From: Proteromonas lacertae | Lineage: Eukaryota | Direction: 5' to 3' | Assembly (NCBI GenBank): GCA_002245135.1 | Contig: NGBS01000356.1 | Span: 1-34,932, forward strand | Length of the DNA: 34,932 bases | In this document: one piece after another, positions 1 to 33,339 of the stretch | Numbering within the stretch: position 1 is the stretch's first letter | Layout of the letters: each line of letters starts with the position of its first letter | Notes under the pieces: generated by a model | Databases searched by the model: none | Seen by the model: only the letters and a program-made list of their open reading frames with translations | What the model was told of the DNA's origin: nothing | Program-made: the position numbers and the translations under genes

Positions 1-3000
1 TCCATTGCAAAACCCAGTCAACACTTTGAGTCAAAGTTCATTTAGGCCTATACTGCTAGACCACCTGTACAGATAGTGCAGAACCCACAGTACCAAACAC
101 CACTGAGAAGACCAACCATCCAAGCTGAGCCACCTCCATCACCCAAAGTTCGTAGAGTGAGCGCTGAACAATTTCAACGATATTTAGAAGATGATGAAAT
201 TCCAGAGTCTCCACATCAAATTGCACCACCTGTGTCAGATATACCAGAGACACATCCTCAAGCACCAAATGTGAGTAATGAGACCAAAGAAGAAATGAAA
301 GATACATTGGAGGCATTAGATGTGTTAGAAAATCATCCTCAACAAATAAGAAGATTACCTATACCGCAGAGAAGAGAATTGATGGAGAATGTAGAAAGAT
401 CATCCAAAATGTACAGTATGTCAATACCTGTCAAATTTGGTAAAGAAAAATTTGAAATTGCAAAATCACCAGAAAGAGTGTTTGAAGAGTTAACTGGATA
501 TACAAGAGATAGAAATAAGCAACAACAGCAAGAAGAAGAAGAACAACAGTCAATTCCAGAGTGTATGGTAAAAATTAGAAATTTCATAGATTACTTTGGT
601 TATGCAAAAATTTATTTTACTTTCAAAGTAGCTTATATCTCAGCAGATGTAATAGAAACTGCAGAATCTGAAGAAACTATGACAAACTGGAAGAGTTTTT
701 TGACACTGATATTGTTAAATTTGTACTAAAAGGTGATTTAGGTGGTGTATTACCAGAAAAATTATATAATCATTTGTATGACAATATGGGTGAGATATTC
801 AATACTCAAAAATCAGATTTTAAGATTTAGATGGATTAATGAAGTAGTAATTAATTTAGCTCGTTCTATTGTCACAGCTGGTTGGGCTGCTACAATGATA
901 GTGAAATTGAGAATATAGAGTTACCAGAAGAGTTAGTAAATAAAAAATGCATAATACAATTGAAATTCAGTAAAGCCAGTTGGTAGACAAAATATATGTT
1001 TTCTATATGCAGTAGCTGCATCAATTCACCTATATGGAATTTTCTAAGTAATAGAATATAGAACACAGTATTATAAGCATTATGTACAATCATATAACAC
1101 TGATTACTTGGAATTTCCATTAGATCCGATAAATTAGCAAAAATGCTATACGTCAATTTGAGAAAAATAAACAAAATCACTCTTAACATATTTACAGTAG
1201 ATTTTGATGAAAGCTATACCATTATATGTCACTCAGATAGATAAATTCAAAAATTGGCCTCATGCCAATGTATTGTTCTATGGAAATCATTTCTACCCTA
1301 TTACCAACTTAAATGCATTTTTACTTACCATTGAAACAAAAGTGTAGTAATTATGTAGAAAGATGTCCATATTGCTTCTGTAGATTATTCAGTGATAAAT
1401 CATTCCAATATCATCAAAAACATAAACTGTCAAGTATGCAAACAACAGAGGTATTATCAGAGAGTTCCCAGATCCTGAAACAATGATTAGCTTCAAAAAT
1501 TATAAGTTTATGCAAATGATGCCAGTGGTACTATACTGGGACACTGAGACATACCAAGAAGATTTACCATCAAATACAGTTATCAAAAATGCAAAAGGTG
1601 CATACAAGAAACATGTTCATGAGCAGCTGGTGCATACACATCAGTTCTCAGTATCCAGGCCACAATTCCAGAAAAAACATACTTTGATGAATTAAAACCA
1701 GGTGAAGATCCATCAGTGTTAGAAACAAGATTAGTTAACAAATTCTTAGAGATTCAAGATAATATAATGAAAATATATGAAGACAAGATAGCACATCCAC
1801 AAAAGATGTGGGGATATATTGAATCAGATGATGCGAATAAAGAATGTGCATATTGTCATAAGCAATTTATCAGTAAAGATAAAGATTTGAGACCTGTTAA
1901 GCACCATGACCACTTCACTGGTCAATACATAGCAACTCTATGTAATAAGTGTAACTGGCACTGTGATTTAAGAAATATGTATATTCCAGTGTTGGCACAT
2001 AATAGCAAAAATTACGACAATAATTTAATTATCAGAGCTCTAGCCAAAAAGACAAAGAATATGAAGCACAGTGGGTTTTGGGAGAACATGAACACTATAC
2101 AGGATGCAGATTTGCCAGAAATTGAAATTCAAGAATCAAACCAGAATCAAGCCGATATTCCAATTCCTGATATGATATCCAACTATAATGCTAGCATAGA
2201 AGAAGAAAAGAAAGATGGAAGAGCAACAAGCACTGATTAACAACTATAATGCTGACACTGAAACAGATAGTGACATTGAAGAATGTGATACTCCAAGAAG
2301 TATGGATCCTACTGTTACAATAATAAATGTTGATCCACTATTGAAAACAATGATGAAGAAGCATTCCATATGTTACATGAAATGATACATAGAGATAATG
2401 TTGTAAATGTATCACCCACATTGTCACCATTAGATGATAGTTCATCAGTATCACCACCTATATTACCTCAGCAACCTGAACCAAGACCTAAACCTAAGAA
2501 AAAGAGATATCGATCAAAACTATCCGTTTTAATGAAAACTGATAACAAATTCTTGATGATAAAATTCATGAAGTTAAGATTCATAGACAGTTGCCAGTTC
2601 ATGCCAGCATCATTAGATAGTTTAGTAAAGTCATTAAAAGTAGAAGCAAATGAACACTCAAATAAAAAATATTTATTCAAACCAGTATATGACTTTGTTA
2701 CTGACAGAGAACAATTCATCTATCAAAAATTGACCAGTAGTGGATGGTCAGTGGAAGATTTCATAGATAAGTGGGGATTAGAGAAGGGACACTTCCCATA
2801 TGAATATTGTGATAGTTTAGGACAAATATTATAAAACTAGCCGTTTACCTAAAAAAGAAGATTTTGCTTCAAAATTAAAACAGAGTGATAATATAACAAA
2901 TATAGAGTATGCATCATGCTGTGAGTTGTGGGATGTCATTCAGTGTAAAGATTTAATGGATTATAATAAATTTTATTTAGGCCATGGATGTTCTCACTTT

Positions 3001-4796
3001 ATCCTCAGTATTTGATCACTTCAGAAAAGTTGTTTTTAAAAACTTTGATTTAGACCCTTGTTGGCACTTATCATCACCTGGTTTGTCATGGAGTGTGTTT
3101 TTGAAATATTGTCCAGTAGAGATAGAGTTGATTAGTGACCAAGATAAATACGATTTTTATTCACAGTGGTTTAATAGGTGGTATATCTATGGTTGGTTCG
3201 AGTCGTTTAGAAGAAGCACATAATCACTATATGGACCCACCCTATATAGTAGAACATCCTCCTCAGATAGAATCATATATTTGCTATGTTGACTATAATT
3301 CACTATATCCAAGTACAATGGCTACAATGAAACTACCATATGCTGATTTCAAGTGGGAAGAAGGAAATGAGCAGGAATTGATGGATATGTATTACAGTCA
3401 AATATATAACATTAAAACATATGAAGAAATGATTAGTGACAAAGAAAAGCATGTAAATGATGAATGGGATAATAAAGACTCCAGAGGTTATATATTAGAG
3501 GTGGATATCGAACCTCCTTCAAACATTCACAAATTCGATGAATATCCATTATTACCTGAAAAGAAGTGTATAAAGTACGAAAACTTATCACAGTTACAAC
3601 AGAGTTGGGCTATGGAGCTTGGATTGGTGAATAAGAAAAAACAGCTTAAAAGCAACACACCTAGAATTATATTGGATTTATCAAGAAAACCAAAATATGT
3701 TGTACACTATCAATATTTGAATTTCTGTGTATCATTAGGTTATAAAATAACAAAAATACATCGTATCATATCCTTCAAAGAATATCACTTCTGTTTTGAT
3801 TTTGTGATGAAGTGTCACTTGTTACGTAGAGAAGCCAAGCAACACAAGAGAGAAGCAGAAGCAGATACATTCAAATTGTTACTCAATTCAGCCTATGGAA
3901 AAATGTGTGAAAATACCGAAAATCGATGTCGATCAAAATTAGTCAATAATGAAGAAGATTTCTTAAAGTGTTCCAGCAATCCTTATTTCTGTGGATTTGT
4001 TAGTATAGATGGTTGTGATTTAAGAATTTGCAAATTTAAAAAATATAAGTGTCAGGTTAACAAACCAAGTTATATAGGAATGTGTATATTATTTGAAAGC
4101 AAGCATTTAATGAGTAAATTCTGGTATGGTACTTTGTATAGAAAATATGGATCAAGCCTCAAGCTTTTAATGACAGATACAGATAGCTTCATATTCAAGG
4201 TATTTACAAAGGATATATATGAAGATATTATGAAGGACCCATCATTTGAAGGTAGAATGGATACTGGTAATATTAATTGTGATTTTTTAAAATCCAAAGG
4301 TATTAGATATACAAACTCACATAGAACTTCAGAATTGAATTTGATGAAATTAGAAGAAAATAAGAATGGTTTGTATACAATTACAAGATTTTGTGGTTTG
4401 AAAGCAAAAATGTATGCATATGAAAAGCAAAGGATAGATGGAACAAATTCATTGTTGTTAAGTGATTCCAGAGCCAAAGGTGTGACTAAAGGATTTCGAT
4501 TACAAACATGTGATTTCAAATATTATTATGATATTCTCACTGAGTCTAAAAAAGTATATGTAGAGCAATTCTCATTCAGAACAGCACGTCAGTGTATTTA
4601 TACAGTCCGTATGAATAAGTTAGCATTTACGATTTTCGATGTGAAAAGAAAATATATTGATGTTTATCACTCAGAGCCATATAATAATGTTATAAAAAAT
4701 ATTGAAGAAGAGAAGAAGGATGATGATGCTGTAGTTCCCTTATATAAAATAAAAAACTCATTTCTAATTAATTGTGTTTATTTTTGTAACGGATAA
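1..4796 (+). pseudogene. polB: Protein-primed DNA polymerase B, copy A (many frameshifts in 1-3160; 5' end probably outside window)
   Basis: Fragments 76-729, 1483-1695, 1716-2240, 2370-2834, 2984-3223 and 3135-4796 give in order ExoI YWDTE, CxxC..HHDHFTG..CxxC, ExoII HNSKNYD, FIDS, KGHFPYEY, ExoIII, GLIGGIS, motif A YVDYNSLYPSTM, motif B KLLLNSAYGK, motif C MTDTDS and GLKAKMY. Colinear with copy B. Confidence 0.92.
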
Positions 4797-5177
4797 ATTT
4801 TTAAAATTATTCCAATTCTTAAATCTTTTTCTTAACTCATCCTATGGCACGTACTAAGACCACATATCGCGTTGGTGGGTATAATTGATTTTTTATAAGT
4901 CTATAGATTTCATCCTAAACATCGCAGAAGCAACATTCATCAATCGATTCAATGTGCACCAGCACCAACGCCCAAAAAACCAATACAAATCAAGTTGGGT
5001 CCATGTTTCAAAGAAATCAATGAATATCTGCATAAAACATATAATGATTCAATTAGATGGTGTTTTAAAATAAATAACGAAAATCTTAGTACTATCACCT
5101 ATAATTTCTTAAAGTAGCTTAATACTAATGATATTAATGAATTTCATCATTATTCTTGTTTTGTGTTTTTGGTCTAT

Positions 5178-6467
5178 ATGTCTAGCACTAATACTTATGA
5201 TCCACATTTATATAGCAACTATAACATCCAAACTCCTTATCCAATTAAACAGGCTCCTACAAACGGGAACTTATCACTTGCAGCATATATTAACAATGGA
5301 GCACCGAATATACAGATTGCACCAAGAGAAGCTTCGTATGATGACCAAATGGCAGGACAAATTGCCCAATATAGAGAACAACTAGATGAACTTTATAAAA
5401 AATATTATTATTTAAAAGATGATGAATTTGTGAAAATGACCCAACAAGTGAAAAACCTCAATGATACACCACCACCACCAGATGTTGTTAGGGAATATCT
5501 AAGGAGACAAGTTGGAAAGCAAGTAGTTGATTTCAAGTACAAAAAAAATAATCCGTTCGCTACTATCAAAAAGCCTGGGTATTTCCAAATGGACTTGGTA
5601 TTTTTCTTGCCTAATTTTCCTCACTTGTATTTAATTGAATTAAACTCTAGAAAAGTATGGGTTACACCAGTTGCTGGTAAAAGAGGTGAATATGATATAA
5701 TGCCTGCATTTTTAAATTGGTACTATGAGTATGATAATTATGGTAACAAAACGCATAAAAATGTGGTAAGTATTTTGTCAGATCAAGAAAGTGGTTTTTA
5801 TAATGTTTTTAAATTTTGTCAAGAAGAAGGTATACAATACTATATGAAAGAGACCAGTGAGCATAAGGTAGAGTCACTATTGGATAGGTCAGTCAGTGTG
5901 ATAAAAAAATTATTGTACAAACACTTGGTAGATATTGGTTTTGAAGCACCTGAATATGTAGCTGATATTGACCGTGGAGATAAACATGTACCTAAAGATC
6001 CAAACTATATAATAAAGTTTAATCAAATAATACAAGAAGTGGTAAATGACTATAACAATAAACCATTACCAGGAATCAAAGGATATACACCAAATGAGGT
6101 ATTTCATAGTCCTGAATTGAAAAAGCAAATATTACAGAAGTCAATAAACTATAATTTGAAAAATTTTGAAAAACTTGAAAAAAGTGATCAAAATTTCGAA
6201 GTTGGTGACTTGGTGAGATTTAAGGAGCGAAGACGTAAAATGGATAAGAATATATACTGGTCAGATCATGTATACAAAATAATTAAAAAAAATAGATATT
6301 CGTATTGTTTAGGAGATCAAGATGGTAGAGAGATACCAGATTTTTCACTTATTCATTTTAAGCACTATGAGTTGCAGTTAGTGAAAAAAGATGAAGCACG
6401 AGATACTTGGTTCAGAAGAATATTACAAAGACCCAGAATTAGAAAAGATGATAAATCGATAGTATAA
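5178..6467 (+). CDS. Retroviral-type (rve) integrase, copy A
   Basis: PGYFQMDLVFF, LIELNSRKVW, ILSDQESGF, LLDRSVSVIKK, YNNKP..GYTPNEV and a C-terminal FEVGDLVR SH3-like motif. First ATG at 5178. Confidence 0.88.
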   Translation: MSSTNTYDPHLYSNYNIQTPYPIKQAPTNGNLSLAAYINNGAPNIQIAPREASYDDQMAGQIAQYREQLDELYKKYYYLKDDEFVKMTQQVKNLNDTPPPPDVVREYLRRQVGKQVVDFKYKKNNPFATIKKPGYFQMDLVFFLPNFPHLYLIELNSRKVWVTPVAGKRGEYDIMPAFLNWYYEYDNYGNKTHKNVVSILSDQESGFYNVFKFCQEEGIQYYMKETSEHKVESLLDRSVSVIKKLLYKHLVDIGFEAPEYVADIDRGDKHVPKDPNYIIKFNQIIQEVVNDYNNKPLPGIKGYTPNEVFHSPELKKQILQKSINYNLKNFEKLEKSDQNFEVGDLVRFKERRRKMDKNIYWSDHVYKIIKKNRYSYCLGDQDGREIPDFSLIHFKHYELQLVKKDEARDTWFRRILQRPRIRKDDKSIV

Positions 6468-6500: not shown

Positions 6501-6997
6501 TTATATTAAACCAAATTGTTTTTTCATTAACCTAATTTTTGCTTCACCTACTATTGTATTAAAATCAGTTGCCTTCTTGAAACTACACTGATCTCTTAAA
6601 ATATTTTTCAAAAAATTAATAGCAAAAAATCCACAGTTGGCAGTATTTGAATTTTGATTCTGTACTCCATTGATTTTAAGTTCATACTTTTCATTATGAT
6701 ACTTTTTGAATTTTTTCAAACTTTTTTGAATTTTTCTAAGTGTTGAGGATCTTCACCAAATGAATCATAGTACAGGAATTGTTTTTTGATATTGTCAACT
6801 ACTAAAGCCACCCAGTGGCCAATTTCATTTGGATTAGCATGAGTGGTGAGTGTATTGATTATGATTCCCCATTGATTCTTCTTTTTGGGTATAGGAAGTA
6901 CAAGCTCGTCCCAGCAGAACACTCCCATGAACTTTCCATGAAAATTATTGAACTCATTTTTTACAATTAATTCTATATCAAAGTTCGATAAGGCATC
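6501..6997 (-). other. Adenain/Ulp1 (clan CE) protease domain
   Basis: His (GHW), Asp (YYDS), oxyanion Gln and Cys (QxxxxxxCG) occur in the canonical clan CE order. Confidence 0.88.
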
Positions 6998-9900
6998 TGA
7001 AGTAATACTGTTATATAAAATCTTCCTACGTGAAATTAATTTTTTATTCCCATTACCTCTTTGAAACCAATTTAAAGCTTGATTAACTTGTTTTAATTGA
7101 TCTAAGTTACTCACTGCTCTACCAAAATTAGTGAATGAACTTGGAATTGACTGTTGTTGTTTTGGAACGTAGTTAGCAAATTGTATTCTATTCTTATGTT
7201 TATGTCCTTCTGGCTTCAGGAAGTTTAATAAACCACCTGCATCCAACAAACCAATGACTCCAGTGAGTGCTGTCATCACTGTTGCTACACTAGCAACTGT
7301 CTGTACTGTACCTGTTGGATCCTGTGCTAACACTTCTGGAGCAGCTTTCAATATCGAACCTGAACTAACATTACTTAAATTAGGAGGTGACATACCAGTA
7401 AACCTAAACAAAAATGGCACTGCTTGAAACAAATGTCTGATATAGGGATGTTTATTGAACAAAAATGATGTACCAAAATTATATATTAAATCTATCGGTA
7501 ACCAAGAGTTTTGTAATGCTTTTGGTAACATAGCCTTCACTTTATCTGAATTACCATAATATAAGTCAGTGATAGCAGGTAAACGACCACCTGACAACAT
7601 ACGAATAATTTCGTAATAATCATACACGAAGTACCACATTACATACAGGAAGCCTGTCATTGGCAATTTTGCCTTCTTCCATAACCAAAAAGCCAAACAT
7701 GAAAGTAATATTGTACGTACATATTTCATTACATGATCTACTTCAAACATTTGAGGAGTAACTCCACCTACTAAATAATCTTTGAATGTATAATATATCT
7801 GAGGAAATATCCTAAACAAATTTTCTACACACAACAACAAGTTACCTACAAAACCTGTATAATCAGTTTCCTTCAAAGAGTCCAGTGCCTTCTGAAATTG
7901 TGAATTTTCAAATTTTGCCCATGATGAACATGCTGTTTTCAACAAACCAAATGCTATTGATACTTTTTCTGGATTAGAAGCTGCCATCCAATCTTCAGGA
8001 AGTTCATGAGCAAATTTCTCTCTATTATAATCAAAATTAATGAAATCTCTACTATTTTGTGAAGCTACTTCATTAAGCATTCTATAATAATCTTCATTTA
8101 TTGGTGAACATTCACCTTGACCTATATCTGGAACTTTTGACATAATGTCTGGATTCTCTGTAGCAAATTTAAAAAAGAGTGATTGGTCTTTTATTTGATC
8201 ATCATTCATTACTCTACCCATTTTTTGATTATTTAATGCAATATATTCTTTAACTTTTTCAGCATCGAGATTAGATGGATCAGAATAAGCATGTATTTTA
8301 CTAACACCATCTGCTAATTCATTTTGCAAGTACTCTTGTTGCAGTAATAGCTTATTATAATATTCATCCATTTCCTTATTATTTCCCATAACATAGTCCC
8401 ATCCTTTAGATAATATATTATTTTTATAGTTTTTATATGCTTGTAGTTCAGGATTCATTTCAATTGCTTGCTGTAATGACTTATAACCTTGTAATTGAGG
8501 AAATCTTTTATATAAATCATCTGTTATTTTATTCACTCCATTATCATATGCCATAACATCTTGTTCTGTAACACCTTTAGGCCAATTTAAAATATATTCT
8601 CTTGGCATTGATGTATCTAATTGAGCTAATGCTGGAGTACCTCTTAAATTACCTTTCTTATGTGCTGGATCTCTCATATCATATAAATCAATGTGATAAT
8701 TATTAGGTAATTGTTGAGCATAGTTATTTGTAATTTGATATTGAATCTCTCTTCTAGCTTGCCTACTTAAGCCAGGTGCAAACAACTTATCATAATTCCA
8801 ATTATAATTGTAGCCAACAGGCTTTTCTGGTATATATCGCTGAACATTAGTTGGTAATTGAGTTGCTAAAGAGATAGGCATATTACCTTCATCTACAGTT
8901 TGTCTTGGATTGGGTACAACAAAGTGTTCATTAGGTTTTACTGTTGTTCCCATATTTAGTTGTACCATACCTCCTAAAACGTTAGTAGCCAAGCGATGCC
9001 TCCGTGGAATTGATTCTAATTTGAATTTATTCTTTCTATCATGTTTTCTATGCTTTTTGAAATGAACATGTTTTCTATGTTTTCTACCATAACCAAAGAA
9101 TCCTTTCTTAGGTAGTTCATCAATTACACTATTTGGATCATTACCTAATTCAGTTATATATGTTTTCAAATTATCTATTGCAGATGCTGCATTACTAAAT
9201 TTAACTATATAATAATCTAAGTAATTTACAAACATTTGCATATTACCAGCTTTACTACTCCAAGTTGAGTAATCACCATAACTAAAACTAAATGCTTTCA
9301 TCAATTGTTGTAAGTTATTATTTTGAACTAATATTTTTATACTTTCATAATTTTGACTACATGCATTTATAAAGGGTTCTAATTTTTTCATCATATCTTG
9401 AATAGTATTATCTTCTTTTTGTTGAGGTGTTGGTGCTATATATTTTCCAACGACTGGCAGTGCTCCTGCCGCTGTGGTGGCAGCAGCACCTGCCATGGCG
9501 AGGTAGTTTCCAGCATTTGAACTTTGGTTATCTGAAGTGGGCAAACCTGAATTTATTGTATATGAATTATCATAACTGGGGGCAGTTGTATTACTATTAG
9601 TTGTATTAACATAACTGGGAGCAGTTGTTGTACCAGGAGTTTGAATACTAGAAGTGGCCGGCTGGGTCGTGGAGTTTGGAGCTGACATATTCTGACTAAG
9701 TGTAGTAGCACTTGCACCAAATATACCTTTGAACCAATTATATACATTGGTAAAAGAATTAGCAACAAAATCCCATATACCTTTGAAACAATTATTGATC
9801 CATGAAAACATATCAACAGGTGGTTTTTTCATCCAATAATTGTATGCCATACTAACAAAATTAGGTGTTAATAAAGACACATATGAAGCTGCTTGAACCC

Positions 9901-10810
9901 ATCCTTTTGATAAACCAAACATCCATTCCATAACTCCACTCCATCCAATACCCATATTTACTATATACTTTAAAATCTGCCCTGTAACTGAATTTTGGAA
10001 TAATATATCAAAAACAGATGAAATAGAACCAAGTGTCATAGTACACAAACAGAACTTTATTCCGAATTTGATCCAATCATAAGTTGGACTACCTGCAAAG
10101 AATTGATCTATTTTTTCAAATAATGATTTCTTTTGGTTATCATTCATGCTAGCAATTTTTCGTTTATATTCTGCATTCTCTGCTTTGATTATTTCATTCT
10201 GTTGTTGCAATTCATATTCATGATTTTGTTGTGTAGTACCTGCATTATTGTTCCACTTTGGATCACCTTGGTATGAATTCATATTATATTGAGAACCCCA
10301 TTGAGTTAAAGGCTGTCCTTCTATTTGTTTTAAAAATGGATTTTGATATTCATAAGTTAAATTTTCTGGTTGTGCATAATAATCAGAATATGGTTTATTG
10401 TACTTTCCAATGTTCTTATAATATCTGCCGTATTGATCTGTTATTCCGCTTAAATATAATTTGTACTTCATCTCGTCAGTCATGAAATTGTTTTTTGTTG
10501 CATCTGTATTTGGATTGACTGGTTTATTCAAATCCTCTATATCATCCTCATTTCCAATAGTATCATAAAATTTATTTGAATTAGGATCATAGATGTCAAC
10601 TCCATAAGTGGCATTACCTTTATCAACGTTGGATGTTGGATTTGCAAGGTGTGATAGATTGAGCTTGATTTTTTTATTATTCTTGACCTTATCATAGATG
10701 ATCTTTTTTAATTTTCTTTTTAAAGCCGTATGATATATAGATGGATTCTCAAAATCATGTGGATTCTCTTGAAACTCTTTTTGATGATTATGTTTTCGTT
10801 TTGTACCCAT
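6501..10810 (-). CDS. ~1,430-aa putative membrane polyprotein with C-terminal adenain/Ulp1-like cysteine protease (one frameshift at ~6722-6727)
   Basis: ORF 6716-10810 ends with IIINT..GHWVALVVD..YYDSFG. ORF 6501-6719 supplies QNQNSNTANCGFFAINFL. One extra A in the A6 run joins them in frame. Confidence 0.82.
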
Positions 10811-10863: not shown

Positions 10864-11946
10864 TTATGATAAGTATTCATTTTGTAATTCTTCTATAAGT
10901 TTATCAGCATCTTCTTCAGTCATATTAGGATAGTCATTCTTCATTTTAAGTAACTTTTCAATATATTCATTACTCTTATTAAATATCACTTCCTCATCGT
11001 CTGCATCATCGTAATCCATAGCTCCTAATTTCTGGTATTGAAAAAACTGTTTTAAATTATTTTGATCTTCAGGTGGTATATCAGACATCATTTTTTGTAA
11101 CTCTTCCTTGGAAATTTGTTTAGTTAATTCTGTAATTTCTTCTAATGCACTATCATCTAATTTCTGATCTTCTTTTGCTGTTCTCCACAATTCTCTTATT
11201 TCTTTTTGTTCTTCCGGTGTAAAATCAACTAACATTTTTTCTAATTCCTCTTTAGATATGTTTGCTGTAATTAATTTCTTAACATTATCAACTAAAAATT
11301 CATCATCATATGTGAAACCTTTAGTATCAGTAGACGGCTGTACTTTAACATCTGTTTCTGCTTTTGGAGTAATCAATTTATTCATTCTCTACTATATTAT
11401 AAATTAAATTAGTGTATATACCATTTGTTGCATTTGAGACATTTTTATTTGGTTTAAAGGATCACTCATATACTGACCCATTTGCTCTTTTACTTTAGCA
11501 CTAGCTTTTGCCATTTCAAAGTAGTTTGGTCTATTCATATTGACATATATGTTCGAGCCAAATAAATGTTGATCATCTTGTTCTCTCAATGTTTGAGCAA
11601 TAGGATTAGCCATTGAATTACCTTCATGTAGTGATGTGGATAACATAGCATCTATTGCATTCTGTCTCTCTAAAAATTTTTGTTCATCATTCAATTTACG
11701 AATGTCATTTGGATTAGGAGGTGCATCTTTAGAATTCATTTTGCTGATCTCATCTTTTAACTCATCAATACGCCTATCTCTCATACCCACCAATTCTTTC
11801 GCATTTTCCCTATAAAAATTATTATATAAAGATTGATAGTATTTATCGTGTCCTTTGAAACTATGCTTCTTTTTCTTCTTCTGTTTGCCTTTTCCTTTAA
11901 TCCGCTGAACAACAGCAAGCAATAGTTTTCTATTTAATTTTTTCAT
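10864..11946 (-). CDS. Hypothetical protein, basic N-terminus and acidic C-terminus; two ORF-track ORFs probably joined by one tiny intron
   Basis: Removing 11389-11421 gives ...QMQQM|RMNKLITP in frame. N-terminus has IKGKG followed by KQKKKKKH. Confidence 0.65.
11389..11421 (-). other. Tiny spliceosomal intron (33 nt; alternative 30-nt acceptor at 11392)
   Basis: GTATATACACTAATTTAATTTATAATATAGTAG: GTATA donor, CTAAT branch-like motif, tandem TAGTAG acceptor. Confidence 0.65.
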
Positions 11947-12015
11947 AGAGTGGTAAGTTTAACAAAAAGAATATATGAAATATAATAGTTATGAGTATTA
12001 TTAGTATTATTATTA

Positions 12016-21300: not shown

Positions 21301-23205
21301 AATCTTGAATCTCAACAAACTTCTTTACTAGTTGCATCTCCAAATCTTGTGGATCTTGCTGCAATTCCAATTTTCCGAAGAATGTTTCTTCGCTGATGAT
21401 TTCAGGGTACCTGGAACTTAAGTGAATGCACCAACTGCTGAGGATATGTTTTTTAAACGCTCCTTTGGCTCCAGGTATTACTTCAGAAGGATCTATTGGT
21501 ACTTGTACAACTTCTGTATCCCAGTATAATACTACAGGAATCATTTGTTGGTATTTGAAATTATGAAACTTGATGAAGGTGGAAATTGACGAATGATTCC
21601 TTTTTGTAATTGACAATTCTCTTTCTGATGTTGAATTATCATATCAGCTGTTGATAAAGTACAGAAACAATACTGGCATCTGGTATAATAATTATGACAC
21701 CTTTTACCAGAAGGTGATAGGAAGGCTTCTAACTTTGTTATTACCATATAATGATCTTTGTATATTGACAAGTTCACATGAGGCCAGTGTTTTCTTTTAT
21801 CTATGTTGGTAACGTATAAAGGTATTGGTTCATTCTGGTCTATTGTAAATATATTGATAGTAATATGATTCAGCTGTTCAAACTCATCAATTCTGTCACT
21901 ATCATTAATTGCATCTACTGGAAACCTTAAACTACTTACATCCATTAAGTCTACATACTGTTTGTATTTCATTGCTCTGTTACGGTGGTCTTTGAACTCT
22001 ATATAGTGTAAACCAGCTGCCACGCTAAATAAAAAGCACATATTCTTACATTCTTCACTATATCTTACTAAATTAATAACGCACTTTCTATTGTTGAGGC
22101 TTGCTGGTAACTTTATGTTATCATCTTCTGTAGAGGATCCAGCAGCCATTGAACTTTTCATCAGTATCATCTCTACCTTCTTAATATATCTGAACTTTAA
22201 TTCAGATCTTTCAGTGTTGAAAATTGAACCTAAATCTCTAATCATGGCATTGTTTAACTTTGAACCAATTGTACCTAACTCTTGAGAAGTTATAATTTCT
22301 GGCGCTGTTTCGAATGTTTTGTAACAACTTACTTGTGCATTGGCTGGTTCATCGGATCCTATATAACCTACTCTGAATCTGAAATACACTTTTATATAAG
22401 AAAATTTCTTCTCATTTATGTAGTTACGTATGGTAACCATAAAATCACTTGATGCATTGCAGATTTTTGTAAATAAATCCTCAGGTTTCTTTCCATCTTC
22501 TTCATTTATAATCTTCTCGTAGGTACGTTCGTAGTCTCTACTACTTCTCTCTACAAGTTGTAACAAACTTACTCTTTCAGGATGTGACATTGTTTTCAAC
22601 TGCTCTGGATGATTATCAACAACATCCAGAGCAATCATTTCTTCCTGTAGCTGCCTTCTTCTTTCAACATCTGTAGTTGATTGAGGATGTATTTCAGGAA
22701 TTGGTCCATCATTAATTGGTGAAAGTGTTGGTGGATCTTCAGGAGGAGGTGTATCTAGTAATAAATCATCTGGGATTTCTGATAATCGTTGTATTTTTGG
22801 AGGTGGAGGAGGTGGCTGATCAATTACAATTGAAGATGTTGTTCTTCTTCTTGGTGTTATGAAACTAGTTTCATTAGTACTTCTAGTAGTGTTTGATTGC
22901 TGTTGTTGTTGTTGCTGCTGCTGCTGAGGTTGTTGTGGATGTTGATTTAATGATCCTACATAATATGGTGGAGGATAGTAATAGGATGGTGGTGGTGGGA
23001 TAGCTGGAGTAAAATAAGGGTTCATCCAGGGATTAAAATAACTTTGTGGCAACATTGGAATCTGATTTGCTTGACTATTGCCTTGAATAGGCATAGAAGT
23101 ACTTGGAGACTGGTAATACCACGGATTAAACCAAGGAGGATAGCTGGATACATTAGAACCTATAAAACGAGAAAGATATAAATATACCCAATAAAATAAC
23201 TCCAA
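18302..23205 (-). pseudogene. polB: Protein-primed DNA polymerase B, copy B (frameshift at ~21580; in-frame TAA at 19049-19051)
   Basis: ORFs 21541-23205, 19049-21616 and 18302-18982 carry all exonuclease and polymerase motifs. VNNED*FLKCVSNPYFTGFVSIDGCDLR reads in frame across the stop. Confidence 0.93.
23160..23187 (-). other. Probable tiny intron (28 nt) at the 5' end of polB copy B
   Basis: GTATATTTATATCTTTCTCGTTTTATAG has the same length and ends as the other introns; probably in the 5' UTR. Confidence 0.5.
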
Positions 23206-23234
23206 ATGTATTAATATGATTTGCTAATTGAAAT

Positions 23235-23795: not shown

Positions 23796-23879
23796 TTGAT
23801 TGATTATATAATAATTGATTGATTTGTTTTTATTAAAAAGGGTTTTTTAAAAATAACATAAAAAATCCATAACCGATTC

Positions 23880-23955
23880 TTCTTTTTTTTCACTTCCTTA
23901 CTTAGGGAAAGTGAAGTCGATCACTTTTCTCTAGGTAAATAAGTGAAAAAAAGAA
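23880..23955 (+). repeat. Long imperfect hairpin, loop AGTCGA
   Basis: TTCTTTTTTTTCACTT-CC-TTACTTA-GGGAAAGTGA / TCACTTTTCT-C-TAGGTAA-AT-AAGTGAAAAAAAGAA, with G-U pairs on the + strand. Confidence 0.8.
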
Positions 23956-24042
23956 AGGGAAAGTGAAAACGAGTCTTAGGTGGTGTATATGGCCTTCCTA
24001 AGCTTTATATCAGTCTCTATAACATAATTGAACAAATGTTTA

Positions 24043-28813: not shown

Positions 28814-29974
28814 TTATACGAAATCATTAAATAGCGAATTTTTCTTATATACTCTACCATATCTACTTTTTCTGCCTTCTGGCACTGGTTGAATATCTGG
28901 TTCTATAGGTTGTGCTTCATTATTTATACTATGAATTTGTCTTAATCTAAACTTACCATTTGTTGTAATACTATTAACAGGTACTCTTTTAATTTCATGA
29001 GATTTGAATCTATATGAACCTATATCTCTAGGATTGAATTCTTTAGGTATTGTTCCATCCAAGTTCTTAACAGAATATGAAAATGGTCCAACTTTGTGTA
29101 TTTGGTATACTTTATCAGTATAATAAGTAGTTTTTTGAAGTTTGTTATCTCTACGTTCTTTAATTCTGACAAAATCATCAGCTTTAAAATGAGTATCACT
29201 TTTACGCTTCTTTAAGTTTCTAGCATGTGATTCTTTATACAATCTATCTTGAACTTCAAAATCATTGAATACTTCATTTGGAGTTAGATTATTCAGCGCA
29301 GAATGTGGTTTTGCATTGTAATCATCTACAACAGTATATACTATATTACACAATGATTCAATATTGTTAATTTTATCAAATTCTTCATCAGAAAATGTAT
29401 TAATTTTTCTATAAAACATATCTTTAATAGTTCTCACACATCTATCCAATATTTTCATTATATTATGTTCATTACGTTCTTTAAGTATAAATCGTACATG
29501 ATTTTTGTTAAACAAATCTAAAAATTTCTTACCATAGATAATACCAGACTCTTCATCTGATAAAATACTCCCTACAAAACGAGCGTTTTCATCCTTAGGT
29601 TGCATACCCTGATAAAACCATTTTTCAAACACTGGATACACATCATTTTCTGATTTAGATTTAACATAATATATCCAGCACTTACGACTAACAACTTCTA
29701 TAATTAACAAAAATGGAACTTTTGTGTTGTTGAAAAACACCAAATCTATTTGATATGACCCAGGTAACTTTTCAATTTCATATTTAATTCTATTCCTTTT
29801 AGTTGCAGTGATTTGATAATCTGGTTTAGACTCTACAAGTTCACTACTAGCTTTTTTAATGTCAGATTTTTTAAAGTTATTCTCAAGTTCATTTACAGAG
29901 AAATTAATAAAGTCTCGTTTGTTTAAATAACCATATGTTTTGTATAACTCATTTATTTTATCTTGTAGTGACAT
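28814..29974 (-). CDS. Retroviral-type (rve) integrase, copy C (more divergent)
   Basis: PGSYQIDLVFF, IIEVVSRKCW, ILSDEESGI, ILDRCVRTIKD, YNAKPHSALNNLTPNEV and FKADDFVRIKER. Confidence 0.88.
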   Translation of the reverse strand: MSLQDKINELYKTYGYLNKRDFINFSVNELENNFKKSDIKKASSELVESKPDYQITATKRNRIKYEIEKLPGSYQIDLVFFNNTKVPFLLIIEVVSRKCWIYYVKSKSENDVYPVFEKWFYQGMQPKDENARFVGSILSDEESGIIYGKKFLDLFNKNHVRFILKERNEHNIMKILDRCVRTIKDMFYRKINTFSDEEFDKINNIESLCNIVYTVVDDYNAKPHSALNNLTPNEVFNDFEVQDRLYKESHARNLKKRKSDTHFKADDFVRIKERRDNKLQKTTYYTDKVYQIHKVGPFSYSVKNLDGTIPKEFNPRDIGSYRFKSHEIKRVPVNSITTNGKFRLRQIHSINNEAQPIEPDIQPVPEGRKSRYGRVYKKNSLFNDFV

Positions 29975-30041
29975 TCAAACAATATATATAAAAAATATGA
30001 ATGATATATATTTAAAGAATTAATGAATTAAAATAATTAAA

Positions 30042-30818
30042 TCATTCTTCTACCTCTCCCAAATCCTTATCACTTAAAGTGTTACCACCATTACCAAAGT
30101 TAATAACTTTAGCAGCACTAATAAAACCATTACTAATTACTTTTTTAGCAGGGAATGGTCTACGAGTACTAATTAAATCACTATCTTCTATCTTAGTTCT
30201 CTTAATTCTTGGAGGTGAAACAAATTTGTTTTGATTAGCTTGTTCTTTCTTAATTTTCTTCTCATTACTTCTTCTAATAGTTGTAGCTAAATCAGGATTT
30301 TCATCATAACCAACAATATCACTACAAACTCTATGATTAACAAAGTTTTGAGTACCATTACTCTTAATAGAGATTTGATTATCAACAACACTTACAGCAA
30401 TTTTACTACCAACATCAACATCAGATGGAACTCTATAGTTACTATTATCCCATATCATAATAGAATTGAAATTGTGGAAGTATTTAATACCATGTTGTGG
30501 TTCTCTACATCCTACACTAATCAAATATCCACGAATGATTTTTTCTATAAAGTCATTCTCGTTTCTATCATAAATTTGTTTCAATACATATTTCACTTCA
30601 TCAGCTGAATATGTTTCAAAATCTCTTCCATTATTAATTACAACTTTATGATCCAAATCATGAACAAAAGTAATCAATACATATTGACTAGTTTTAGTAG
30701 GCTTAACTGTAATACTCTCAACAGTTCCTTTAATAATCCACTTGTTACATAACTTTGGATTCTTGTAGTAATCACTGAATTCTACATCTGTAGCTTCATA
30801 GGGTGTTTCGTTACTCAT
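30042..30818 (-). CDS. Hypothetical protein, possible OB-fold ssDNA-binding protein
   Basis: WIIKGTVESITVKPTKTSQYVLITF and SIMIWD...VDVGSKIAVSV fit an OB beta-strand pattern. Lies between integrase C and polB C. Confidence 0.5.
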   Translation of the reverse strand: MSNETPYEATDVEFSDYYKNPKLCNKWIIKGTVESITVKPTKTSQYVLITFVHDLDHKVVINNGRDFETYSADEVKYVLKQIYDRNENDFIEKIIRGYLISVGCREPQHGIKYFHNFNSIMIWDNSNYRVPSDVDVGSKIAVSVVDNQISIKSNGTQNFVNHRVCSDIVGYDENPDLATTIRRSNEKKIKKEQANQNKFVSPPRIKRTKIEDSDLISTRRPFPAKKVISNGFISAAKVINFGNGGNTLSDKDLGEVEE

Positions 30819-30960
30819 TTTATATAAGGGAGAGATGAAAATAAAAAATGATAAAAAATGTCAAGAAAAATGAAAATGAAAATTTCTTTTTATTTTTAAA
30901 GTCGACCAATCAAATTTCATATTTCCATTTTTGATTTATTTCGTGAATTCTGTCTATATA

Positions 30961-33339
30961 ATGAGCAAACATAAAAAGCTTTTAAAAGCATTTTTTAAGC
31001 TTCTAGAACAAACTTTTAATAAAAATAAACATCATAAGCATAAGCATCACCATCATCATAAACATAAACATACAGATGAACCACCACCACCAGAAGAAGC
31101 TCCAAAACGAAGATTAGCGCCATTATTTAGCACAGATGCTATTCAAAATAAAAAAAGATACAATAATGATATACCAATAATCAGTGATACATTCTTTGGT
31201 GGATTAATGCCTTCTTCCCTACCAAAACCTAACCAAAATCAAAGATTTAATGATAGAATACGTGATGCTAGAGAAGTTGATAAATCATCTCAAGGTGTTA
31301 CCAGGAAATGGGTTTTCAATTATAACAATAGAAATTACAGTACTCCACAACAATGTTATCATGATTTTGTTAATAATAGTGATATCAAAGATATATTACA
31401 TGAACTAGCTGATACTATGAATATGATAAAATTTTTCTTTATTGTACGTTCAATTTATATACCTGATGAGTCTACTGACAGTGATGATGAAGTTTCTATA
31501 TTTAGTCGTAGTAGACTATGTGAAATAACAAAAATGTCTACTGTAGGTGAAATACAAACTATACTGGAGAATATATTTACAAAAATATCAGAAGATGATT
31601 CAAATCATCCTCAAAGTGGTCTTACTTTTGCTAGAGTAAATACTATAGAATTATATGTAACAAAATTTAAAGTGATACGTGGAAGCAGTTTTATTGTTTT
31701 ACCTGCTAAACTTCAAGGTCTTAGATGTTTAACAAATGTAATAAATGAAGATAATGAATGTTTTAAGTACTTGATTTATTCTTACATGTATCTGATGTGG
31801 AACTTAAATTATTTTGTGAACCTGAATACTATGATTTTATATTGAATGGTTTATACGGAGGATTATCATATATTGGTAAGCGTAAGGAAGATGCTAATAA
31901 CAAATTTATGAAAAATTATGATGAAACTTTACCTAGTAAATTCTTATTATATCAAGACTACAATTCTTTATACCCTTCAGTTATGGCTTCTTGTAAAATG
32001 CCTTTAGATGACTTTGAATTTATTGATCCAAATTCTATTACATTAGAAAGTATACTTGATTTGCCATATTATGAAGAAATGGATCAAGATAGATTAGGAG
32101 AATAATGATTTTGGTTATATATTAGAAGTTGATATCGAATTACCTATAGAACTACAAGACAAGTTTAAAGAATACCCATTACTACCTGAAAGGAAGAAAA
32201 TACCTAAAGAATGGTTATCTGATATACAAACTGAAAGAGCTGAAAATCTTGGTATTATACATAAAGAAAGAGGTACTTACCATGCTACTGAGAAATTAAT
32301 AACTGATTTGTATCCTAAAGAAAAATATATAATACACTACCAAAATTTGAAGTTTGCAGTTGAACATGGCTATAAAGTGGGTAAAGTGTATAGAATAATG
32401 AGATTTACTGAAGGTCTATATATGGGTAAATATATTAATACTATGGTACAAAAAAGAGTCCAAGCTAAAGAAAACAATCAAAATACTACTGCAGACTATA
32501 TAAAGAAATTAATGAATAGTTTATACGGTAAATTTATGGAACGTGTTGAAAAGAGAAGTAACATATCTTTAATTACTAATGAAGACCAAATGATTAATGC
32601 TGCAAGTGATCCATGGTTTAAAGACTTTATCATTATTGAAGGTGATTTAAGAATTGCACATTTTCATAAGAAGCTATATGAAATTAATAAACCTATACAA
32701 ATTGGAATGGTTATCTTAGCACTGTCTAAACTCAAAATGCAAAAGTATTGGTATGATGTATTAGATAAAAAATATGGTTCTGATAAGCTAACACTATGTA
32801 TGACTGATACTGATAGTTTACTTTTCTCAGTTGAAACTAATGATATTTTTGAAGACTTAGAGGATCCTATCTTTAATAATTGGATTGATGGAAGTAACTT
32901 GAAAAATCCCTATTTAGAAAATTATAAGTTAGATATACATAGAGCTGTTCATTCAGGTACATTGAATCGATTAAAATTTGAAGAGCAGGATAAGAATAAT
33001 AAAAATCTGTATGTTATAACAAAGTTTATAGGATTAAAATCAAAGTGCTATATATACGAAAAGGAGAAAGTGAATGATGAATCTGATAATAATACTAATA
33101 CTGACAATCGTTGTAAAGGTATTAATGTGAAAGTTTCTAGAAAAATAACTTATGATATATACAATGATTTTGTTGAAGGTGCTAGTAAAAGTCAAAAATA
33201 TGAAGTATGTCAAATCAAATCAATACATCATAATGTTTATACGACAGTACAAAACAAAACTGGCTTAACCTATTATGATGATAAAAGATATTTTTTTGAT
33301 AAATACAATACATTGCCATATGGATATAAAAATAATTAA
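30961..33339 (+). pseudogene. polB: Protein-primed DNA polymerase B, copy C (internal deletion of the exonuclease region at ~31770; frameshift at ~32098)
   Basis: GSSFIVLP..NVINEDNECFKY, then DLFLHVSDVELKL..GLYGGLS, YQDYNSLYPSVM, GYILEVDIE, KKLMNSLYGK, MTDTDS and GLKSKCY. Confidence 0.9.

Follow-up and report, generated by a model that had tools for sequence, protein, structure and literature searches.

To our knowledge, the maturation proteases of adenoviruses, virophages and Polintons have been described as small separate enzymes, and their substrates are mostly unmapped except in mavirus. In the accessible part of the mavirus report, the mavirus virophage protease (MVP) cuts GG/X and GY/G, and possibly GK/G (the slash marks the cut; PMC6048507). 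MVP and the virophage/Polinton enzyme PRO (vUlp1) are treated as products of separate genes that act in trans on the capsid tail and on MV13. Here, we report on a protease gene of an apparently decayed Polinton-type element in a contig of Proteromonas lacertae (NGBS01000356.1, assembly GCA_002245135.1), of which the whole stretch of 34,932 nucleotides, hereafter the window, was analysed. The gene lies on the minus strand (10810-6501) and comprises about 1,435 codons in total, its C-terminal end being a clan CE protease of the adenain/Ulp1 type. It resembles MVP and PRO in the clan CE fold and the His-Asp-Gln-Cys set; the predicted sites of the window protein fit the GG/X and GY/G specificity mapped in the same report, as far as accessible, and the element carries a protein-primed polymerase B (pPolB) and an integrase-like gene. 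In contrast to MVP and PRO, the protease is here the last domain of a product of 900-1,800 aa and has a predicted site in front of itself.

Other described systems share part of this arrangement. Adenovirus adenain with pVI, pVII and pX (mu), adomavirus LO6 and the adintovirus proteins PLA2X, GasderminX and cupiennin (the 'Macc' class) are alike in their Gly-flanked basic peptides and their amphipathic or hydrophobic stretches, and the accessible accounts describe membrane-active core precursors cut by a viral protease; however, the sites here do not fit the strict adenain consensus (M/L/I)xGx/G, and substrate and enzyme form one chain. This likeness is architectural, no sequence match to pVI or pX having been found. 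Cleavage of adenovirus pre-mu yields, according to the accessible text, three parts: a hydrophobic one, a basic one from the middle and a C-terminal one (PMC7998265). In African swine fever virus (ASFV), the structural polyproteins pp220 and pp62 are reportedly cut at Gly-Gly by pS273R, a clan CE protease and our top fold match, but this protease is a separate protein (chains of 267-273 aa) and the virus is a large nucleocytovirus. For adintoviruses, hypothetical Hexon-Adenain ('Hexain') fusions of a protease with a structural protein have been proposed (PMC11071296); in the part of that source available, the capsid protein is joined by a programmed frameshift, whereas here the intact homologues are continuous and join the protease in frame to regions that are helical or of low complexity and not jelly-roll. 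Gossevirus-group polinton-like viruses, which are protist viruses with a cysteine protease, a penton, a major capsid protein (MCP) and an ATPase, are likened by gene set alone to three related contigs considered below (L002-L004), and their available description does not mention long protease fusions. The nearest precedents, as far as the sources could be consulted, are the hypothetical Hexain fusions and a vOTU domain inside pPolB (PMC11161782). In the literature outside subscription journals, itself partly accessible, no account was found of long in-frame precursors with this protease at their end; long forms may have been noticed.

The reading that we favour, at a probability of about 0.6, is that this decayed Polinton-type element encodes a self-processing virion-core precursor, with Gly sites at which it is cut and with the maturation protease as part of the same chain. 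In the intact relatives, the protease likely frees itself at small-x-Gly or Gly-Gly sites and releases virion-core products.

The fusion is established by intact homologues. A whole-length search gave a single match among 5,381 candidates, a protein of 1,354 aa in one continuous frame (P0001), which was aligned with the long piece of the window gene at 38% identity over 883 columns and 42% over 440 columns, and with the short piece at 76% over 66 aa; P0002 is likewise an intact full-length fusion. Another relative, P0060 (1,068 aa), which emerged as a cluster member, is intact too; from residue 568 on it shares 37% identity across 844 columns, and its first module is a different one. When the protease region was used, 3 of 656 long and 11 of 682 short candidates matched, and a representative library gave 14 matches. 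Many of these were long products (677-1,793 aa) with the protease at or near the C-terminus; further long fusions are P0005, P0006, P0015, P0017, P0018, P0023, P0024 and P0025 and the loci L002, L003 and L009. The fusion is real and, for proteases of this group, typical. Within a decayed element, the loss of a stop codon or an assembly error could also produce a fusion as an artefact, and the element does contain many frameshifts and stops; however, the independent intact homologues at 37-42% identity run in the same continuous frame, and 14 of the 15 members listed for the P0025 cluster (19 members) are full-length intact fusions. Such an artefact, largely refuted by P0001 and P0060, is hardly credible.

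The original prediction had the protease joined to the polyprotein, and not encoded separately in homologous copies. This holds for the closest full-length homologues, P0001 and P0060, both intact single-frame fusions; the short sisters P0012-P0014 appear to stand alone. Short matches can be fragments, since P0011, which seemed to be stand-alone, matches the end of P0060 almost perfectly. In the tree (computed without L006, L007, L009, L012, L013, P0026 and P0029), 13 of the 24 inner branches are open, so that the fusion may have arisen once or several times. The extensions vary widely among relatives, from coiled-coil-like to hydrophobic. By eye, the N-termini of the P0015, P0017, P0018, P0019, L002 and L003 extensions have a similar short aromatic/basic motif, which BLAST confirmed only for P0017-P0019. 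In P0017 (704 aa), the protease is central; beyond it come another Gly motif and one more domain, which resembles, by eye, a separate 360-aa protein of L004 (3615-4697); this may be a case of processing on both sides of the protease.

A Gly motif directly before the protease, to which the original prediction had drawn attention, turned out to be conserved. A G-x-G or GG ending at most 27 residues before the first protease helix was present in 18 of the 20 related proteins with an extension of at least 80 aa; the misses were P0028, whose nearest motif is 70 residues away, and P0060, which has A-M-G then Lys. This count leaves out proteins with fewer than 80 aa before the helix (P0011-P0014, P0016, P0020, P0026, P0029, L005, L008, L011), a cellular/transposon Ulp1 (L013), fragments or unrelated sequences (L006, L007, L010, L012), near-identical cluster members and the probably chimeric L001. 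Before P0060 and L009 were added, the count was 17 of 18, versus a mean of 1.7 (maximum 7) in composition controls and of 6.5 (maximum 12) in local shuffles (5,000 each). The extensions were also grouped by similarity into 13 families, between which no BLAST similarity of extensions was found. With one random member per family, a mean of 12.2 matches (minimum 11) was obtained versus 6.0 in local shuffles and 1.1 in composition controls, and none of 5,000 controls reached the observed value. The Gly motif thus precedes the protease across unrelated extensions. Because the proteases are related by descent, this shows that the motif was retained as the sequences upstream of it were swapped, and not that it originated independently.

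In L001 (9779-10462), a protease of this group stands behind a Lin1244_N-like start on a tailed-phage-like contig (portal, terminase), with a G-S-G junction six residues before the protease helix; L001 is probably a chimeric assembly, otherwise an unusual transfer.

As for the rule of cleavage, the candidate sites fit the looser mavirus rule, GX/G or GG/X, better than the adenovirus consensus. The strict adenain consensus, which the original prediction had cited, is not supported: QRGNG and FFGYG misfit (M/L/I)xGx/G, the protein contains no (M/L/I)xGxG at all, and LSGG at 1072 is not conserved, being GE in P0021 and GN in P0060.

The protease domain is compact (about 165-185 aa) and carries the clan CE catalytic set in the order His-Asp-Gln-Cys, in two frames in the window copy and continuously in P0001. 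A fold model of the family (P0011, 11 sequences) reached a predicted local distance difference test score (pLDDT) of 77 and a predicted template modelling score (pTM) of 0.78. In PDB, it came closest to pS273R of ASFV (E 4e-6) and to adenovirus proteases (E 8e-6), and NEDP1/SENP scored slightly lower; the matches to pS273R, adenain and SENP across E 4e-6 to 1e-4 correspond to the adenain/Ulp1 fold. In a viral structure library, mimivirid, adintovirus and Sputnik proteins were among the matches. At the sequence level, P0001 scored 39.6 bits with Peptidase_C48 and 19.7 bits with Peptidase_C5, below the cut-off of 21.3; P0014 and P0031 pass the Peptidase_C5 cut-off. The adenain-clan assignment of the original prediction was borne out by the catalytic set, by a sequence match to SENP1 and by these fold matches; the enzyme belongs to clan CE but is not demonstrably adenain proper. 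The SENP1 match, the best in PDB (E 0.003), the Peptidase_C48 assignment and the lack of a detected capsid gene in the window would also suit a deSUMOylase or deubiquitinase directed against host proteins and anchored by its N-terminal part. We consider this very unlikely: the domain is compact, viral maturation proteases come first by fold, if narrowly, relatives lie in penton/ATPase modules, and the Gly motif just upstream would be left unexplained.

The original prediction of one membrane polyprotein of about 1,430 aa was correct in length and in the C-terminal position of the protease, but the window copy is written in two frames and not in one open reading frame (ORF), and 'membrane' claims too much (see below). 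The long ORF reaches its stop downstream of His (nt 6817) and Asp (nt 6766) of the catalytic set, whose Cys (nt 6635) sits, together with the oxyanion Gln (nt 6656), in the 83-codon piece (6752-6501). The frame is broken between these two halves, in an A-rich stretch near 6716-6735. The neighbouring polymerase shows at least 5 frame changes against its paralogue, and the window copy of the protease gene is decayed or error-rich. Because the Cys lies past the frameshift, this copy would yield no active enzyme. A programmed frameshift at the break was considered and judged unlikely, since P0001, P0002, P0010 and P0060 are continuous in one frame and the adjacent polymerase has many breaks.

The blocks and motifs named in the original prediction were all found on the minus strand (Table 1): a basic N-terminus, the hydrophobic/amphipathic block, the Ser/Thr linker, FFGYG-RKHRKH (residues 571-581), VLGG-M (611-615), LVGG (1013), LSGG (1072) and QRGNG (1250-1254). 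GG at 613-614 and GGV at 1015-1017 are each retained in 4 of 4 aligned lineages. Conservation of a single GG is by itself modest evidence: of the 40 Gly positions aligned from residue 570 to 1260, 14 are the same in the window protein, P0001 and P0060 anyway. The order of features is more widely shared: a small-x-G followed by a basic tract and, 20-50 residues later, by GG occurs in the window protein, P0001, P0060, P0005 and P0023. In P0060, the boundary of the exchanged module 1 is exactly this internal cassette. The P0005/P0023 family has the order of features in common with the window family, and the profiles align only in the protease. For module 2, the model reached a pLDDT of 42 (7 sequences) and had no BFVD match at E 0.001 or better; compared with 48,161 chains, its best Z was 7.1, which is not meaningful for a helical model of low confidence. 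P0001 residues 480-1170 gave no usable match in ESM Atlas.

Table 1. Features of the protease gene and its neighbours in the window (KD19, Kyte-Doolittle hydropathy over 19 residues)
Feature	Position	Strand	Support or conservation
Long ORF, 1,364 aa: precursor modules and His/Asp half of the protease, ends at the frameshift	6716..10810	-	homologues
Second piece, 83 codons, other frame: Gln/Cys half of the protease	6501..6752	-	76% identity to P0001 end
Module 1 hydrophobic/amphipathic block, residues ~245-366; KD19 peak 1.69 at 253-271; Trp-rich amphipathic helices 334-366	9713..10078	-	kept in P0001, replaced in P0060
Ser/Thr/Asn-rich low-complexity linker, residues ~367-432	9515..9712	-	
Cassette G-Y-G / basic peptide / L-G-G, residues 573-614	8969..9094	-	GG retained in 4/4 aligned lineages
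Module 2, residues 615-1253: mainly helical (predicted), conserved xxGGV 1013-1017, hydrophobic stretch 1171-1189 (KD19 1.87)	7052..8968	-	
G-N-G junction, predicted self-release site, ~20 residues upstream of the first protease helix	7049..7057	-	
Three co-oriented ORFs (174, 184, 206 aa); the 184-aa ORF has K-G-K-G before a Lys run	10864..12636	-	
89-aa basic protein: Arg run, GG, amphipathic stretch, G-F-G and Arg run; candidate core protein/substrate	12742..13011	-	
151-aa basic protein: amphipathic stretch, G-Y-G and Arg run	13070..13525	-	weakly similar to L002 basic protein
Integrase-like gene, convergent with the protease gene	5118..6467	+	33% identical to rve-type ORF 28814-29974

In the proposed mechanism, the G-x-G that precedes the protease would be cut in cis or in trans, and further cuts would fall at G573-Y-G575 and G613-G614. 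The predicted products are module 1 (~65 kDa), a very basic peptide of 41 aa (pI 11.9, with 21 K/R/H) and the helical module 2 (~74 kDa). The 41-aa peptide may serve in DNA condensation or nuclear import, like adenovirus mu, and the neighbouring small basic proteins may be cleaved too. The fusion would package the protease at a fixed stoichiometry with its substrates and may hold it inactive until assembly. We infer the cleavage itself, its timing, its course in cis or in trans and the functions of the products.

Hydropathy scans of the window protein (Kyte-Doolittle, 19 residues) gave three peaks, at 1.48-1.87; the protein also has several amphipathic helices. The stretches 253-271 and 1171-1189 are retained in P0001 (1.75 and 1.71), and the second also in P0060 (2.24); P0005, P0025 and P0006 have no peak at 1.3 or above. 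With two or three marginal hydrophobic stretches, the term 'membrane polyprotein' is overstated. The original prediction had deduced from these blocks an internal membrane or a dedicated entry apparatus of the virion, for which the precursor would supply integral membrane proteins. The retained stretches and strong amphipathic helices would agree with this, and, in the accessible part of one report, structural polyproteins of the ASFV type are processed into parts of a multilayered capsid (10.1101/2024.03.23.586382). However, the peaks are not only marginal but Gly/Ala/Thr-rich, the module 2 model is too poor for a membrane fold, and adenoviruses and adintoviruses, in the sources as available, have membrane-active core proteins without an internal membrane. 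We find this explanation improbable. Membrane-active core proteins cut by adenain have already been proposed, as far as these sources are accessible, for Polintons/adintoviruses and for adomaviruses (PMC8502044, 10.1101/341131, PMC11071296). For this reason, and because the three relatives lack peaks, the self-processing precursor is more economically completed by entry peptides than by an internal membrane: its amphipathic stretches would act as membrane-active entry peptides and not as anchors.

In the neighbourhood of the gene, the pattern of G-x-G or GG plus a basic run was present in 4 of the 24 window ORFs scanned, all in the protease gene block. The 89-aa and 151-aa basic proteins have no Pfam or PDB match; the former may be likened to pVI/pX. 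When compared with the basic protein of the capsid-module contig L002, the 151-aa protein gave a z of 7.1 raw and 2.9 with basic runs masked; the masked values for the small basic proteins were 2.9 and 0.5, i.e. weaker. The protein-primed polymerase was recognised by PF03175 at 3132-4793 (E 1.6e-9) in a fragmented gene. The ORF 5118-6467 has no Pfam match itself, and its relative 28814-29974 matches rve weakly (E 0.006).

In L002-L004, the long protease gene adjoins a penton-like gene (profile match to PDB 8h2i P1v1, E 3.5e-5). L002 and L004 also encode a Pox_A32 ATPase, and all three have a basic Gly-motif protein. A further protein, which has no Pfam or PDB match, we presume from its size and position to be the MCP. 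This gene context ties the protease group to virion maturation. In L002 (13981-15087), a 368-aa basic protein has many repeats of G-x-G plus an Arg run with amphipathic inserts, and is a strong candidate for a multi-site substrate. Context searches of viral contigs (with P0001, the integrases, the polymerase, an MCP alignment and P0015), of GTDB genomes and of phage records gave no result.

Several points weigh against a self-processing virion-core precursor. Within the window protein alone, Gly motifs occur at chance frequency in 2,000 shuffles: (M/L/I)xGG 2 versus 0.73 expected (p 0.17), (M/L/I)xGxG 0 versus 0.74, GG 4 versus 4.4 and GxG 4 versus 4.4; their weight comes only from the comparison with relatives. 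P0060 and P0028 are without a two-Gly junction motif, and the internal site of P0060 is only S-R-G. The motif could also persist as a structural linker, the junction being inherited together with the protease. P0012-P0014, short proteases of 187-193 aa, constitute a supported sister group that lacks an extension, and the best Pfam family is Peptidase_C48, not Peptidase_C5. The capsid-module contexts come only from distant relatives, whose proteases are 35-42% identical to the query used. Finally, MCP, penton and packaging ATPase were not detected in the 34.9-kb window, the left end of the element lying outside it.

The two proteins without the motif and the very different extensions would also be expected of a maturation protease which stays tethered, with an N-terminal arm that serves as a scaffold or for targeting and a Gly motif that is only a flexible linker. 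This explanation we hold to be rather unlikely, as the motif is Gly-specific and exceeds local shuffles of equal Gly content, matches the experimentally mapped mavirus sites, and recurs internally and in the neighbouring basic proteins.

For capsid genes, the window was searched with Pfam (32 ORFs), with tblastn, for Walker A motifs and with three small profiles over 449 six-frame segments. No capsid, penton or ATPase gene was detected, so that the particle of this element is a putative one. Divergent capsids can escape such searches; in the accessible parts of two reports, some protist Polinton capsids were recognised by structural modelling alone (10.64898/2026.06.19.733378; PMC10120064). 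No MCP, penton or ATPase was detectable in the ~13.5 kb that extend from the polymerase to the basic proteins inclusive, nor in the whole window with its three polymerase/integrase sets. A doubtful extension of these data would be a Polinton-type lineage without a jelly-roll capsid, whose particles are built or modified from a Gag-like self-processing precursor and small basic peptides. The precursor would then comprise a membrane-binding module, a basic nucleic-acid-binding peptide, a helical module and the protease, and would form an enveloped particle of its own or be fed as satellite cargo into a helper capsid.

If the self-processing precursor is real, small eukaryotic DNA viruses would use polyprotein expression in the style of RNA viruses, with the protease, throughout a widespread group, as the last domain of swappable products of 300-1,800 aa. 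As the protease stands nearly always behind a Gly motif, substrate and site would be named in one gene, so that specificity, auto-activation and the nature of core or entry proteins could be addressed with one construct. The motif may also be usable to annotate core proteins where capsids are too divergent to find.

Elsewhere in the window, three related polymerase and integrase sets occur within 35 kb: 46-6467 (+), 16898-23223 (-) and 28814-33339. The second is inverted relative to the first, at a DNA identity of about 67%, and seems to have little else. Weak PF02945 matches at 1623-2240 and 19049-21643 point to an endonuclease VII-like insertion in the polymerases. No pair of long terminal inverted repeats was found in the window, outside which the left end of the element lies; only two hairpins, 16281-16349 (33-nt arms, 94%) and 23879-23957 (32-nt arms, 81%), were found, which flank the second set and are possible element ends or junctions. 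An RRM-domain gene (14447-15328, +), with an in-frame TGA at ~14744, lies beside an acidic ORF and is possibly cargo or a host gene. In addition, a tandem 24-nt repeat of about five copies (16009-16152) runs in frame within an 80-aa ORF.

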